DNA of 9,701 bases, from assembly GCA_008932965.1 (NCBI GenBank), contig WBXG01000062.1:1-9701 (forward strand). Direction: 5' to 3'. The stretch comes from Verrucomicrobiota bacterium. Its GTDB lineage: Bacteria > Verrucomicrobiota > Verrucomicrobiia > Chthoniobacterales > UBA6821. Below the pieces are notes generated by a model, which was given only the letters and a program-made list of their open reading frames with translations, made no database searches and was not told the origin of the DNA. A program made the translations under genes and the position numbers. Below are positions 702-9,701 of the stretch, piece after piece; position 1 is the stretch's first letter, and each line of letters begins with the position of its first letter.

Positions 702-727
702 CGATCAGTATGAAATATGCAGGTTAA
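702..727 (+). repeat. Solo arm of the palindromic repeat family (CGATCAGTATGAAATATGCAGG + TTAA), tip pointing toward gspE
   Basis: Differs at one position from the arm at 4301-4326 (CGATCAGTATGAAATATGCGGG+TTAA). No partner arm or element core is detectable to its left. Confidence 0.75.
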
Positions 728-2671: not shown

Positions 2672-4264
2672 ATGGAAACAGAACATCTTAATACGCGTGC
2701 AGCAGGTATTGTTGCTGGGGCTGTGATGCTCAGTCGCTTGCTTGGTCTGGTGCGCGAACTCATTTTTGCAGGACTCTTTGGTGCAGGGCGCGGGATGGAT
2801 GCTTTTATTACTGCATTTCGAGCTCCCAACTTGCTACGAGATCTTTTTGCCGAGGGGGCTTTGTCAACGGCCTTTGTCACTGTTTTTTCTCAGGAAATTG
2901 CAAAACATGGTGATGTAGCAGCCTGGAAATTGGCTTCCAAGATGATCACCCTAACGACTCTGTTTATGAGTCTCATCACGCTGCTTGGGATTTTTTTTGC
3001 ACCACAGCTTATTGCAATTCTTGCTCCTGGTTTTGCTCCAGAAAAAGCAGAACTCACTATTTTTCTAACTAAGGTGATGTATCCCTTTATTTTGCTCGTC
3101 TCACTTGCCGCTCTGGTTATGGGGATGCTCAATGCAAAAAATATTTTTACTGCACCAGCCCTTGCCTCGAGTTTTTTTAATTTGGGATCGATTATTGGAG
3201 GTGTTGCCTTTGGTTGGTATTGTGATCCTCACTTTGGAGAGCGAGCCTTAACTGGGTTAGCTCTTGGAACCTTGCTTGGAGGGTTGCTGCAGTTGATAGT
3301 ACAATTTCCCAGTTTATCCCAAGCTGGGTTTCGTCTGGTTCTTGATTTTCAATGGCGTGATCCAGGAGTAAAACAGGTTCTCCTTCTAATGTTACCTGCA
3401 GTGATTGCTGCAAGTGCTGTTCAGATTAATGTGATGGTCAATAGTATTTTTGCCTCCTACCTCGGAGATGGTCCTGTAAGCTGGCTCTCGTATGCCTTTC
3501 GTCTCATGCAATTACCCCTTGGTGTTTTCGGCGTAGCTATTGCAACAGTAACCTTACCCCTCGTTTCAAGGATTGCTGCCCTAGGGGATTTGAGCAAATT
3601 TCGATCCACTCTTGCCCGTGCCTTGCGACTGGCCCTTTTTTTAACTCTTCCCTCAGCTGTGGGACTCATGATTTTAGCACAGCCTATTATTGCTCTTATC
3701 TATGAGCGTGGAAAATTTCATCCCCACGACACAGTACAAACCGCTTCAGCACTTCAATTCTATGCCATAGGACTTGTTTCTTATTCCTGTATTAAAGTTC
3801 TTTCGCCTGCCTTCTATGCTTTGAATCATCGTTGGACCCCAATGATGGTCAGTTTTCTCTCGATCGCACTGAATTTATTATTTAATTGGATTTTTATTTT
3901 TGAGCTCAAGATGGGGCATCGAGGCTTAGCTCTTTCGACAGCATTATCGGCCACTCTTAATTTTGGACTGCTCTATTTTTTTATGGTCCGTTTTGCAGGA
4001 GCACTTCACTTTCGCGAGTTGTTATCGACGTTTTGGCGTTGTGGGATTGCAACCCTTCCAATGATAGCACTCGTTGCCTTCTCCTCCCATTGGCTTGAAC
4101 ATCTTCATGGAATGCACCTCATCACTAGGGTAGGTGGTTTACTCCTCATCATTGCTCTTGCAAGCGGGCTTTTTATAGCAGGATGTATCTTTTTGAAAGT
4201 AAAGGAGACCTCGGATTTTTTGGTGATTTTAGAACGACGCTGGAATCGTGTGCGTGGCAGTTAG
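2672..4264 (+). CDS. murJ: Lipid II flippase MurJ (MviN family, MOP superfamily)
   Basis: 530-aa polytopic membrane ORF. The N-terminus is characteristic of MurJ: AGIVAGAVMLSRLLGLVRELIFAGLFGAGRGMDAFITAFRAPNLLRDLFAEGALSTAFVTVFS. Later LPLVS and FYA motifs and about 14 hydrophobic segments also fit. It starts 19 nt after the gspE stop, so co-transcription is likely. Confidence 0.93.
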   Translation: METEHLNTRAAGIVAGAVMLSRLLGLVRELIFAGLFGAGRGMDAFITAFRAPNLLRDLFAEGALSTAFVTVFSQEIAKHGDVAAWKLASKMITLTTLFMSLITLLGIFFAPQLIAILAPGFAPEKAELTIFLTKVMYPFILLVSLAALVMGMLNAKNIFTAPALASSFFNLGSIIGGVAFGWYCDPHFGERALTGLALGTLLGGLLQLIVQFPSLSQAGFRLVLDFQWRDPGVKQVLLLMLPAVIAASAVQINVMVNSIFASYLGDGPVSWLSYAFRLMQLPLGVFGVAIATVTLPLVSRIAALGDLSKFRSTLARALRLALFLTLPSAVGLMILAQPIIALIYERGKFHPHDTVQTASALQFYAIGLVSYSCIKVLSPAFYALNHRWTPMMVSFLSIALNLLFNWIFIFELKMGHRGLALSTALSATLNFGLLYFFMVRFAGALHFRELLSTFWRCGIATLPMIALVAFSSHWLEHLHGMHLITRVGGLLLIIALASGLFIAGCIFLKVKETSDFLVILERRWNRVRGS

Positions 4265-4326
4265 AGTGGATATTTCAAACTGATCGCGACTTTTTCATCA
4301 CGATCAGTATGAAATATGCGGGTTAA
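4261..4326. repeat. Minimal (core-less) copy of the palindromic element: 22-nt arm, 14-nt loop, 22-nt arm; possible bidirectional terminator hairpin
   Basis: The left arm is 4265-4286 (AGTGGATATTTCAAACTGATCG), the loop is 4287-4300, and the right arm is 4301-4322 (CGATCAGTATGAAATATGCGGG). The inner 17 nt of the arms pair with one mismatch. The flanks are TTAG (4261-4264) and TTAA (4323-4326). It lies between the convergent murJ and entericidin genes. No U-tract follows on either strand, so terminator function is not established. Confidence 0.7.
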
Positions 4327-4481
4327 TGATTGCTCATCGACCTGCCGACTGCATTAGCCCCAGCAGCAACATCAGAACCGACGGTGCTGACATCACGACC
4401 CATGCCGCTAATAGTGTTACATCCAGTGATCCCAACAAGTGTGATAACAATCATAGATAATGAGAGAATTAGTTTTTTCAT
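4323..4481 (-). CDS. ecnB: Entericidin A/B-family small lipoprotein (52 aa)
   Basis: Own translation of the minus strand: MKKLILSLSMIVITLVGITGCNTISGMGRDVSTVGSDVAAGANAVGRSMSNH*. It has a lipobox ITG|C. The mature part CNT..G.G.D....G......A matches the pattern I recall for E. coli entericidin B (...[25 protein letters not shown]...). GGGG lies 4 nt upstream of the ATG. It is too short for the supplied ORF track. The A versus B assignment is arbitrary. Confidence 0.8.
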   Translation of the reverse strand: MKKLILSLSMIVITLVGITGCNTISGMGRDVSTVGSDVAAGANAVGRSMSNH

Positions 4482-4536
4482 AGGCCCCGTTGATGCCAAA
4501 ATTGAGATGGTTTGGCTACTTTTTTTTCTAAAAAAG

Positions 4537-4720
4537 TTAACCCGGATGTTTCATACTGATCGTGACGAGGAGGCCGCGAAGGCTGATGGGGTAAGGCAGG
4601 CGAGCATTTTGATGTAGGGCTGTATGTGTACATACTGCCCAAATCAAAATGGGAGTCTAACGCAGCATCCATCTGACTTCCCGGCTTCCGTAGTAGATCG
4701 GTAGGAAATATGCGGGTTAA
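4537..4720 (-). mobile_element. Full-length 176-bp palindromic MITE-like element (4541-4716) with flanking TTAA/TTAA; non-autonomous, no transposase
   Basis: The arms are 4541-4562 (CCCGGATGTTTCATACTGATCG) and 4695-4716 (AGATCGGTAGGAAATATGCGGG), in inverted orientation. TTAA lies at 4537-4540 and 4717-4720. The reverse complement aligns without gaps to 8437-8612 at about 125/176 identities (hand count). Strand is given relative to the copy at 8433-8616. Confidence 0.8.
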
Positions 4721-4742
4721 CCCGAATATTTCATGCTAATCA
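4721..4742 (-). repeat. Additional left-type arm abutting the TTAA of the preceding element (GGGTTAACCC junction); possibly the start of a decayed, internally deleted copy extending to about 4822
   Basis: CCCGAATATTTCATGCTAATCA matches the arm at 8437-8458 (CTAAGATATTTCATGCTCATCT) at 16/22 positions. Downstream there is patchy similarity to the element core (CAACTCCT, TGAGC, TGCATG, CTCCTGC in the same order). A weak right-arm-like GATGATGAAGAGG precedes CTAG at 4823-4826. Confidence 0.6.
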
Positions 4743-8349: not shown

Positions 8350-8396
8350 GATAAGCAGTATTGAATTCATGGTATCTCAGAGTGTCTAAAAAATTT

Positions 8397-8402
8397 AGGG
8401 GA
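8397..8402 (+). promoter_or_regulatory. Shine-Dalgarno-like AGGGGA, 9 nt upstream of ATG 8412
   Basis: It is the strongest SD-like sequence in the window. It supports ATG 8412 as the ancestral and probably current start of the autotransporter gene. The internal GTG at 8617 has no comparable SD. Confidence 0.5.
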
Positions 8403-8411
8403 TAACCCTTT

Positions 8412-9701
8412 ATGAAGAAAAACCAAGCTCTTCTAGCTAAGATATTTCATGCTCATCTAATACTGCAACCGGGAAGCCAGTTGGATACAGCATCAAACTC
8501 CTATTGTGACTTGAGCCGTTTGGATGCATGCAGCTCTGCTTCTAAATACTCGCAAGCCAGGTCCTATCAGCCTTCGAAGTTTCCTCGTTACTATCAGTAT
8601 GAAATACACTGGCTAGTGCTGCTTATTATCGTGATCAGTCAATTGTTGGTGTCACATGTCATTGCACAATCATCAACTAATAATCTATACGTTGGTAGTA
8701 ATAGCTCTGGCCAGACGACCACTTTCACAAGTGGTACTAATTCCTACAACAACACCTATGTTGGTTATGCAAGTGGTGCTTCCAATAATAGCCTGAGTAT
8801 TATTAATGCAGGAACCCAACTTACAAATAGTTCATCCCTCATTATTGGCGTTGAGGGAGCAAATAATTCAATGACGATCTCCAGTGGTGGAAGAGTTGTC
8901 AATAATAGTGGAGTGATTGGATCTAGTAACTCTTCTTCTAACAACTCCGTTTTTGTGACTGGCACTGGATCCGTTTGGACTAACAGTGGCAATCTCACTA
9001 TTGGTCTTACTGGAGCAAATAATACTCTCACTATTGCAAATCGAGCTACGGTATATGCACGCAGTGGAGTCATTATAGGTAGCAATGGGATTCTCAAAGG
9101 AAATGGCACTCTTAATGCCTCAGTAACCAATAATGGACTTCTAGCTCCTGGATATCCTACAGGGAAATTAACCATTAATGGGAATGTCGCACAAAGCTCG
9201 AGTGGGACCCTCCAAATCAAAGTGGTAAATTCAAACGCTTACAGTAAACTTCAAGTCAATGGTAGTGTCACTCTTGCCGGCACCTTAGAAATCACCCCTA
9301 TTGAAAGTTCACTAAGCTATGGAGAGAAATTGACTTTTCTAAATTCATCAGGGCCGATTAAAGGAAGCTTCAATACCGTTCAAGTAGATGAGCCCTATTG
9401 CCGTGGCCGAGTTCAGATCATTGGAGACCCACAAGCCATAGTCACCATTGCTCCTACAAGCTACACATATTTAGCCCAGAATCAAAATCAAACCAATGTG
9501 GCCACTGCTCTTGATAGCTTCATCCCAGCAATTAGTGGGGATGAGCTTCTCGTTGCAACTGGCCTTGATTCTCTCACCGCTGCACAATATCCAGCAGCCT
9601 TGAATGCCATCATGCCCATCCTTTACCAATCCCTCTCTACGATTGCTTTCAATATCGACAATGCCCAGAATCAAGAACTCATTCAGCGCCTCTGGGGAGT
9701 C
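8412..9701 (+). CDS. Autotransporter (type Va) adhesin-like protein, first 430 codons (3' end beyond the window), carrying a 60-codon in-frame element insertion in its signal peptide
   Basis: Own translation, open from ATG 8412 to 9701 in frame. The N/S/T-rich passenger has strand-loop-strand type repeats (NNSVFVTGTGSVWTNSGNLTIGLTGANNTLTIANRATV). A typical pre-barrel segment follows (NNGLLAPGYPTGKLTINGNVAQSSSGTLQIKV...LQVNGSVTLAGTLEI). Then comes the junction/start of the autotransporter beta-domain (NQTNVATALDSFIPAISGDELLVATGLDSLTAAQYPAALNAIMPILYQSL). It is not in the ORF track because it is open-ended. Whether translation through the insert yields an exported protein is unknown. Confidence 0.85.
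   Translation, partial: MKKNQALLAKIFHAHLILQPGSQLDTASNSYCDLSRLDACSSASKYSQARSYQPSKFPRYYQYEIHWLVLLIIVISQLLVSHVIAQSSTNNLYVGSNSSGQTTTFTSGTNSYNNTYVGYASGASNNSLSIINAGTQLTNSSSLIIGVEGANNSMTISSGGRVVNNSGVIGSSNSSSNNSVFVTGTGSVWTNSGNLTIGLTGANNTLTIANRATVYARSGVIIGSNGILKGNGTLNASVTNNGLLAPGYPTGKLTINGNVAQSSSGTLQIKVVNSNAYSKLQVNGSVTLAGTLEITPIESSLSYGEKLTFLNSSGPIKGSFNTVQVDEPYCRGRVQIIGDPQAIVTIAPTSYTYLAQNQNQTNVATALDSFIPAISGDELLVATGLDSLTAAQYPAALNAIMPILYQSLSTIAFNIDNAQNQELIQRLWGV
8433..8616 (+). mobile_element. Full-length 176-bp palindromic MITE-like element (8437-8612) with flanking CTAG/CTAG, inserted inside the autotransporter coding region
   Basis: The arms are 8437-8458 (CTAAGATATTTCATGCTCATCT) and 8591-8612 (CTATCAGTATGAAATACACTGG). 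CTAG lies at 8433-8436 and 8613-8616. It aligns without gaps and at equal length with the reverse complement of 4541-4716. Confidence 0.8.

Follow-up and report, generated by a model that had tools for sequence, protein, structure and literature searches.

The stretch of DNA analyzed here, referred to as the window, comprises 9,701 nucleotides of contig WBXG01000062.1 from a Verrucomicrobiota bacterium of the order Chthoniobacterales. Its genes encode a type II secretion system (T2SS) ATPase, MurJ, a small lipoprotein (minus strand), three glycosyltransferases, and an autotransporter, and the same locus with an identical MurJ is present on several lake metagenome contigs and in the metagenome-assembled genome (MAG) GCA_029866255.1. 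Two full-length copies of one repeat, copies A and B, lie in the window, and copy B is located within the 5' end of the autotransporter gene. We describe this repeat as very probably a miniature inverted-repeat transposable element (MITE), a non-autonomous cut-and-paste element of Chthoniobacterales MAGs that behaves as an in-frame selfish passenger. The features on which this description is built are as follows.

4537-4720, minus strand: copy A, full length and intergenic, with its core at 4541-4716 and TTAA on either side.
8433-8616, plus strand: copy B, full length, with its core at 8437-8612 and a CTAG target duplication at 8433-8436 and 8613-8616.
8412-9701, plus strand: 5' part of the autotransporter open reading frame (ORF), running off the window, from the ORF translation and an orthologue with PF03797.

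The ORF is assigned to the autotransporters because its full-length orthologue (864 aa) carries a PF03797 barrel; the rest of that gene is intact.

A sequence-only reading of the window had claimed that the two copies are equal in length, without indels despite about 29% substitutions, and that both keep the same frame open. Aligned with copy B, the reverse complement of 4537-4720 extends over 184 nt without gaps at 129/184 identical positions (70%), as claimed. Frame 1 contains no stops in either copy; its translation in copy A is exactly the peptide quoted in that reading, and in copy B it is the autotransporter frame from ATG 8412, of which the copy makes up codons 8 to 68. The remaining forward frames are closed, as had been reported, with stops at codon 1 of frame 2 in both copies and at codon 2 (copy B) or codon 25 (copy A) of frame 3. 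The frame 1 peptides share 27 of 61 residues. Shuffling leaves frame 1 open in 7% of trials for copy A and 3% for copy B; the earlier reading had itself put one open frame in two copies at a few-percent chance level. Two homologous copies are by themselves weak evidence, and it is the family-wide data that carry the case.

A degenerate terminal-repeat pattern identified at least 84 stretches, and all of the matches listed fall in four Chthoniobacterales/'Spartobacteria' MAGs; among these matches, every host is a Chthoniobacterales/Verrucomicrobiota MAG. Searching about 560 kb of loci from the four MAGs with an nhmmer profile yielded 220 non-redundant hits, of which 101 are full copies. Against this profile, copy A scores E = 5e-60, covers model positions 1 to 184, and belongs to the largest subfamily, and copy B scores E = 1e-35. 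Copy A, an ordinary intergenic copy, folds into a hairpin of -66.9 kcal/mol. Copy B is an old, diverged insertion, the most decayed of the 184-bp copies in the sample, with a hairpin of -43.3 kcal/mol (z = -0.5) that is no better than those of shuffled sequences. A 64-codon ORF on the minus strand (4478-4672) begins at an ATG within copy A, and its TGA and the lipoprotein start codon overlap as ATGA. This overlap resembles translational coupling, but the chance estimate is roughly 10%, and the ORF is probably spurious.

The family has a core of 176 bp and duplicates a 4-bp YTAR target, such that each insertion adds 180 bp, or 60 codons, as had been inferred from the two window copies. The terminal inverted repeats (TIRs) are about 21 bp long (CCCGsATATTTCATACyGATC), and the interior is largely self-complementary with a central palindrome. 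Compared with their own reverse complement, the consensus ends (about 21 to 25 nt) match at 22 of 23 positions, and repeats I2 to I8 of the window likewise represent TIRs. The minimum free energy is -82.5 kcal/mol for the consensus and about -73 on average for 184-bp copies. The flanking 4-mer is TTAA, CTAG, CTAA, or TTAG at 91 of the 101 left ends and 91 of the 101 right ends, and in 66/101 copies the two flanks are matching direct repeats (TTAA/TTAA in 38, CTAG/CTAG in 19, and CTAA/CTAA in 9). The nine CTAA/CTAA pairs identify these flanks as target duplications and not as inverted repeats. The only ORFs in the element are the 60-codon read-through frames, and it has no transposase gene of its own. 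IS5 duplicates a 4-bp 5'-YTAR-3' target (PMC5009759), and judged by the target site alone, the element may be mobilized in trans by an IS5-type DDE transposase. Around 20 copies are 265 to 376 bp long and carry a second module of about 80 to 100 bp nested at consensus position ~83 or ~127, which are mirror positions (for example, L080 2860-3235, L041 4639-4945, L040 330-614, and L032 100-378). The module may be a second small mobile element, and the composites in L080 and L041 still read through in frame within long ORFs.

Three independent pairs of filled and empty sites differ by exactly 180 bp each. In an autotransporter-like gene, L136 and L137 differ at 4 positions in 1,032 bp and are 99.5% identical across a 3-kb flank; the sequence of the empty site is GTTGCC-TTAG-CGCTC. 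In the filled allele, the 176-bp core sits in frame and is bracketed by two copies of TTAG. Within the species of the window, L002 and L004 are filled at a duplicated CTAG at which L001 and L003 are empty. The third pair consists of orthologues of a low-molecular-weight protein tyrosine phosphatase (LMW-PTP), filled in L025 and empty in L018, which derives from another MAG. The exactness of these pairs indicates that the family moved recently, including in the population of the window. Older insertions are common to different species, namely copy B and a copy at the murJ stop codon. We also observed that gene calls for a GspJ-like pseudopilin (L001 2783-3535 and L002 2745-3548) extend upstream into element fragments (..DDRYEISGL.. 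and MKHTAVV...QYEISGL), with a strain-specific 180-bp insertion altering the called N terminus; the true start is probably just ahead of the KTAG/FTLLE prepilin motif.

The 101 full copies have a modal length of 184 bp (52 copies, the 176-bp core plus 4 bp per side), followed by 185 bp (14 copies), with other lengths scattered. The strict conservation of length that had been proposed thus stands for the mode and not for the family as a whole: net length is divisible by 3 in 64/101 copies and not in 37/101, none of which lies in a gene. Forward frame 1 (F1) is open in 48 copies and reverse frame 1 (R1) in 41, compared with 0 to 3 for any one of the remaining four frames. The family divides into four subfamilies. 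Three of them (n = 35, 26, and 12) share a 184-bp mode, and the consensus of each is open in F1 as well as R1, even though these consensus sequences differ from each other at 30 to 78 of 184 positions. In the fourth (n = 14), the mode is 187 bp, for a net length of 183 bp that is again a multiple of 3, and only F1 is open. On depletion of stops in frame 1, suggested earlier as a check, the consensus of every subfamily has none in that frame. The reverse frame had been called closed, which holds for copies A and B (stops at codons 25 to 27 in both) and fails for the family, since three of the four subfamilies have a consensus with R1 open and R1 is the frame read in 6 of the 11 in-gene copies described next.

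We scored a full copy as in-gene when at least 50 open codons were present on either side. Besides copy B, this identified 11 copies, five in F1 and six in R1, all exactly 184 bp, so that the further in-frame copies inside genes looked for in the earlier reading number at least 11. About 12% of the sampled full copies are in frame within conserved genes. A net length divisible by 3 is found in 12/12 in-gene copies versus 52/89 other copies (Fisher p = 0.003). The host genes, identified with Pfam, are unrelated and include the following.

PheT: insert between the tRNA-binding and B3/4 domains.
GlnD: insert ahead of the last ACT domain.
PyrF: insert right after VCVGLDSE.
LMW-PTP: insert just past the P-loop helix, placed by Pfam and by alignment to the solved YwlE structure.
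AddB-like PD-(D/E)XK nuclease, LivM-like permease, PMT-type glycosyltransferase, and TamB-like protein: in-frame inserts.

In the alignment of LMW-PTP to YwlE, query residues 31-56 correspond to chain residues 2-27 and query residues 122-232 to chain residues 34-145, with the insert splitting the alignment at 27/34. Substitutions among in-gene copies fall evenly over codon positions 1, 2, and 3 (62/62/66), and 43 codons differ synonymously versus 113 non-synonymously. The peptide itself is under no detectable selection, in keeping with the caveat of the sequence-only reading. Both frame 1 peptides are rich in Ser and Pro and hydrophilic, with grand averages of hydropathy of -0.7 and -0.4.

Several further possibilities were considered for these copies. 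In-gene copies might have had weaker hairpins, but they are as strong as intergenic ones (Mann-Whitney p = 0.91). There is no need to invoke translational bypass or splicing of the insert, as all in-gene copies are open and have lengths divisible by 3. Among six candidates for disruptive, out-of-phase insertions, three were examined and none was clear. Two of these are separate neighboring genes (CNNM/TolC, and TrmD with the next gene). The third (L063 1300-1483) is an in-phase R1 copy in AsnB, just ahead of SGGIDS, with a stop at insert codon 55, and may represent a pseudogene, a split gene, or a sequencing error.

The target site and the element sequence together explain how in-gene copies could survive. 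Within an ORF, a YTAR target can occupy only two phases, as an in-frame TAA or TAG would already be a stop. In the phase that splits into the codons YTA and Rnn, the element is read in frame 1 whichever its orientation, and consequently all in-gene inserts start L-T/A-R-I-F-H. As the founders of three of the four subfamilies are stop-free both ways, the host protein would gain a hydrophilic stretch of 60 residues (L-T/A-R-I-F-H-T-D ... D-Q-Y-E-I-S/C-G-L) and continue in frame. In the remaining phase, a TGA in the terminal repeat would end translation after 7 codons (consensus frame 3 reads NPHISY and then stops). With one of two phases usable, about half of the intragenic target phases would give read-through. 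In-phase copies in loops, linkers, or termini are then very probably tolerated and persist as selfish passengers, and intergenic copies decay.

Copy B is very probably an old instance of this at a CTAG between the n-region and the h-region of the autotransporter signal peptide. The n-region, MKKNQALL (8412-8435), and the h/c-region, VLLIIVISQLLVSHVIA (8616-8666), are split by the copy. Excision of the core and one CTAG (180 bp) gives ATG AAG AAA AAC CAA GCT CTT CTA GTG CTG CTT ATT ATC GTG ..., which encodes MKKNQALLVLLIIVISQLLVSHVIA/QSS, a canonical n-h-c signal peptide. Related autotransporters have a short signal peptide right before (Q)NLYVGSNSS. Strains L001, L002, L005, and L006 carry the insertion at the identical position with its frame open, and it also occurs in orthologue L138. 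In a MAG of a different species (Tobar), whose orthologue is 87% identical at the protein level, it is kept and open, with GTG as the start and the first eight codons conserved. The reconstructed empty site of copy B was not found in an exact-match metagenome search. Searching with the passenger domain mainly yielded distant paralogues, and the two with element copies have them at unrelated sites, intergenic and with stops. As a separate observation, a tract of roughly 150 bp at window positions 8350-8500 differs at about 30 sites from L001, L002, L005, and L006, to which the window is otherwise near-identical. It takes in the spacer ahead of the autotransporter as well as the left third of copy B and looks like recombination from a more distant lineage; one of its differences shifts the stop of the upstream glycosyltransferase (580 aa versus 585 aa).

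The best-surviving alternative concerns this gene: copy B may not be translated in the working protein, either because the start lies downstream (GTG 8616, or TTG 8481 within the element) or because the gene is inactivated. Start calls do disagree, which counts against translation through the insert, falling at ATG 8412, at an ATG within the element where the window has TTG, or at GTG 8616; the JGI call in L002 begins past the element, and the NCBI calls P0053 and P0054 begin at the ATG within it. An n-region of 68 residues is also unusual for a Sec signal peptide, and the related P0056/P0057 gene looks truncated and has no beta-barrel. However, an AGGGGA Shine-Dalgarno-like motif lies at 8397-8402, 9 nt upstream of ATG 8412, and GTG 8616 has no such motif ahead of it. 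Codons 1 to 8 are kept in the other species, where ATG is replaced by GTG, whereas the upstream spacer is variable. More than 20 substitutions have left the frame of copy B open in all three allele types, and the PF03797 barrel is intact in the 864-aa orthologue. Autotransporters tolerate long signal peptides. We consider an untranslated copy B unlikely and translation from 8412 through the insert the probable course as judged from these sequences, and the window autotransporter would presumably continue to be exported.

For the family as a whole, the element could instead act mainly as a DNA or RNA hairpin, such as a REP- or ERIC-like mRNA stabilizer, a transcription barrier, or a protein-binding site located at the ends of genes, with its translatability a by-product. 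The stable consensus fold agrees with such a role, as do the hairpin kept by a 66-bp mini-element in the window (z = -5.2), the many copies located exactly on stop codons, and in-gene hairpins as strong as intergenic ones. On the other hand, the window copies have no T-run terminators and no Rfam match, YTAR targeting alone accounts for placement on TAA and TAG stops, and a hairpin role leaves unexplained both the length in multiples of 3 and two open frames across subfamilies. As the main role it is therefore improbable, although it is compatible with a selfish passenger. Less probable still is that the 60-codon unit is a genuine protein module under amino acid selection, with the intergenic copies its pseudogenized remains. 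Many predicted proteins do contain the peptide ends LTRIFHTD ... DQYEISGL, but these ends are the TIRs read in frame, in both orientations. The even spread of in-gene substitutions over codon positions, the intergenic location and target duplications of most copies, the unrelated hosts, the existence of near-identical alleles without the insert, and the predicted disorder of the insert also argue against a module. That two decayed intergenic repeats share an open frame by coincidence, one of them near an autotransporter start, agrees with the 3 to 7% of single-copy shuffles and with the roughly neutral gain of stops in the largest subfamily but is already refuted by the family data, namely F1 open in the consensus of 4/4 subfamilies and R1 in 3/4, at least 11 other in-frame copies in Pfam-supported genes, exact length in 12/12 in-gene copies, and the canonical signal peptide restored by excising copy B, and it is the least credible reading of all.

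Beyond tolerance of individual copies, the element lineage itself might have been shaped by selection for translatability, a stealth strategy convergent with that of Rickettsia palindromic elements (RPEs), and we put this forward only tentatively. Such selection would have favored a length in multiples of 3, harmless peptide ends from the TIRs, and freedom from stops in both orientations in the sole usable YTAR phase. When the interior is shuffled with the TIRs fixed, both frames are open in 3% of trials. In a second subfamily there is some depletion of stops (P = 0.04 and 0.001), which is probably confounded by sub-structure. Random substitutions would keep both frames open with P of about 0.1 for subfamilies 30 differences apart and about 0.01 to 0.04 for those 77 to 78 apart. 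Several observations weigh against our interpretation, either of selection or of passenger behavior more generally. The consensus sequences share ancestry, so that these probabilities are not independent. Stops in the largest subfamily are near neutral, with 19 (F1) and 15 (R1) of 26 copies open versus 18.5 and 20.4 expected. Ongoing selection against stops in individual copies thus gives a mixed result; intergenic copies decay roughly neutrally, so that constraint is visible only in the founder sequences and through survivorship in genes. In the AlphaFold model of P0057, a filled allele, the insert is the sole internal low-confidence stretch (predicted local distance difference test scores of 23 to 32 versus 83 to 94 in the flanks), but this may merely reflect a thin alignment there. 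The sampled copies are biased toward loci with a well-conserved terminal repeat. We found no transposase or longer element with the same TIRs in the ~560 kb of sampled loci, where multi-copy ORFs and distant terminal-repeat pairs led to host genes only and to no autonomous partner. Finally, translation through any copy of the element is predicted from reading frames.

Further traces of the family occur in the window.

4261-4326, plus strand: mini-element of 66 bp with both TIRs and a deleted interior (repeat I2, terminal-repeat matches).
4717-4742, minus strand: solo terminal repeat (repeat I8) that abuts copy A head to head, with TTAA 4717-4720 in common.
702-727, plus strand: solo terminal repeat (repeat D1) ahead of the T2SS ATPase gene, left over from another copy.

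The ends of the mini-element hold the stop codons of two convergent genes, the TAG of murJ at 4262-4264 (within TTAG) and the TAA of the lipoprotein gene at 4323-4325 on the minus strand (within TTAA). A MAG from Kiruna retains a full-length copy of 185 bp where the orthologous murJ ends (L029 1963-2147), and the mini-element is an internal-deletion derivative of that copy. The hairpin of the mini-element (-24 kcal/mol) lies between the convergent genes and has no T-run. Consensus scans do not support a terminator or promoter role, and scans of the window with Rfam at gathering thresholds and for tRNA and tmRNA gave no match. In the flank upstream of the window locus (L001 1-2700), CesT and SicP-binding matches, which are type III chaperone-like and partly faint, occur beside a T2SS pseudopilin operon; they hint at a host-associated lifestyle, in which case there would be a parallel to Rickettsia.

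The repeat also affects the public annotation of these Chthoniobacterales MAGs. The frame 1 consensus peptide, searched against a collection of 5.8 billion proteins, returned only short spurious ORFs on intergenic copies: 52 clusters (P0001 to P0052) of 'hypothetical proteins' of 49 to 105 aa that are frame 1 translations of such copies, many of them called from the ATG at element codon 17 (74% query coverage). Spurious hypothetical proteins and inconsistent gene starts beside copies are the result, and the odd 68-residue N terminus of the autotransporter is explained as an insertion in a signal peptide. These observations are of practical use for annotating Chthoniobacterales MAGs and of moderate interest for mobile elements and protein evolution. 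Filled and empty pairs in conserved enzymes are natural experiments on insertion tolerance, and if translatability is indeed selected, an active element would offer allele pairs with 60-residue insertions in the essential genes for PheT, PyrF, GlnD, and LMW-PTP.

The closest functional parallel is that drawn in the sequence-only reading, whose observations proved correct in all details and whose interpretation is supported with refinements. RPEs (Ogata et al. 2000, 2002) measure 105 to 146 bp, with TIRs of about 12 bp; their target duplication is listed as uncertain, and 19 of the first-described copies are located within protein genes (PMC2229807, PMC10969869). Like RPEs, the Verrucomicrobiota elements are short palindromic repeats with long hairpins and several subfamilies that occur in intergenic regions and, as tolerated passengers, in frame within conserved, unrelated housekeeping genes. 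The likeness ends at function, however, and the element, a MITE with TIRs and target duplications, is RPE-like and, judged by its size (a core of 176 bp), its ends (TIRs of about 21 bp), and its host phylum, not a member or relative of that family. It also has a clear YTAR duplication, both orientations are translatable, and exact filled and empty alleles exist. The conserved peptide of RPEs has no counterpart here, where peptide conservation does not go beyond DNA similarity. Selfish DNA in protein genes, best known from Rickettsia, thus extends to an unrelated, uncultured freshwater lineage, in which its mechanics are unusually clear from the TIRs, the YTAR duplication, and the exact 180-bp alleles.

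Other bacterial MITEs are also relevant to this comparison. ERIC/RU-1, YPAL/RU-2, the 107-bp Correia element, and QMITE1 of Coxiella all carry contiguous ORFs, some copies being fused in frame to host ORFs, and YPAL supplies part of the signal peptide in YPO1552 (PMC2229807, PMC5896051, PMC10969869). The Verrucomicrobiota family shares with them TIRs and a target duplication, a size of 100 to 200 bp, stem-loop transcripts, and some in-frame fusions, and shares with the IS5 group the 4-bp 5'-YTAR-3' duplication (PMC5009759), its own ends beginning CCCG. It differs from ERIC, YPAL, Correia, and QMITE1 in sequence family, in host lineage, and in its duplication (YTAR versus TA), as well as in the fraction of full copies that lie in frame in conserved genes and in having three subfamilies open both ways. 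Our literature search returned no description of MITEs of this kind in Verrucomicrobia. In-frame insertion of MITEs is an established phenomenon, of which the Verrucomicrobiota family is a new instance.

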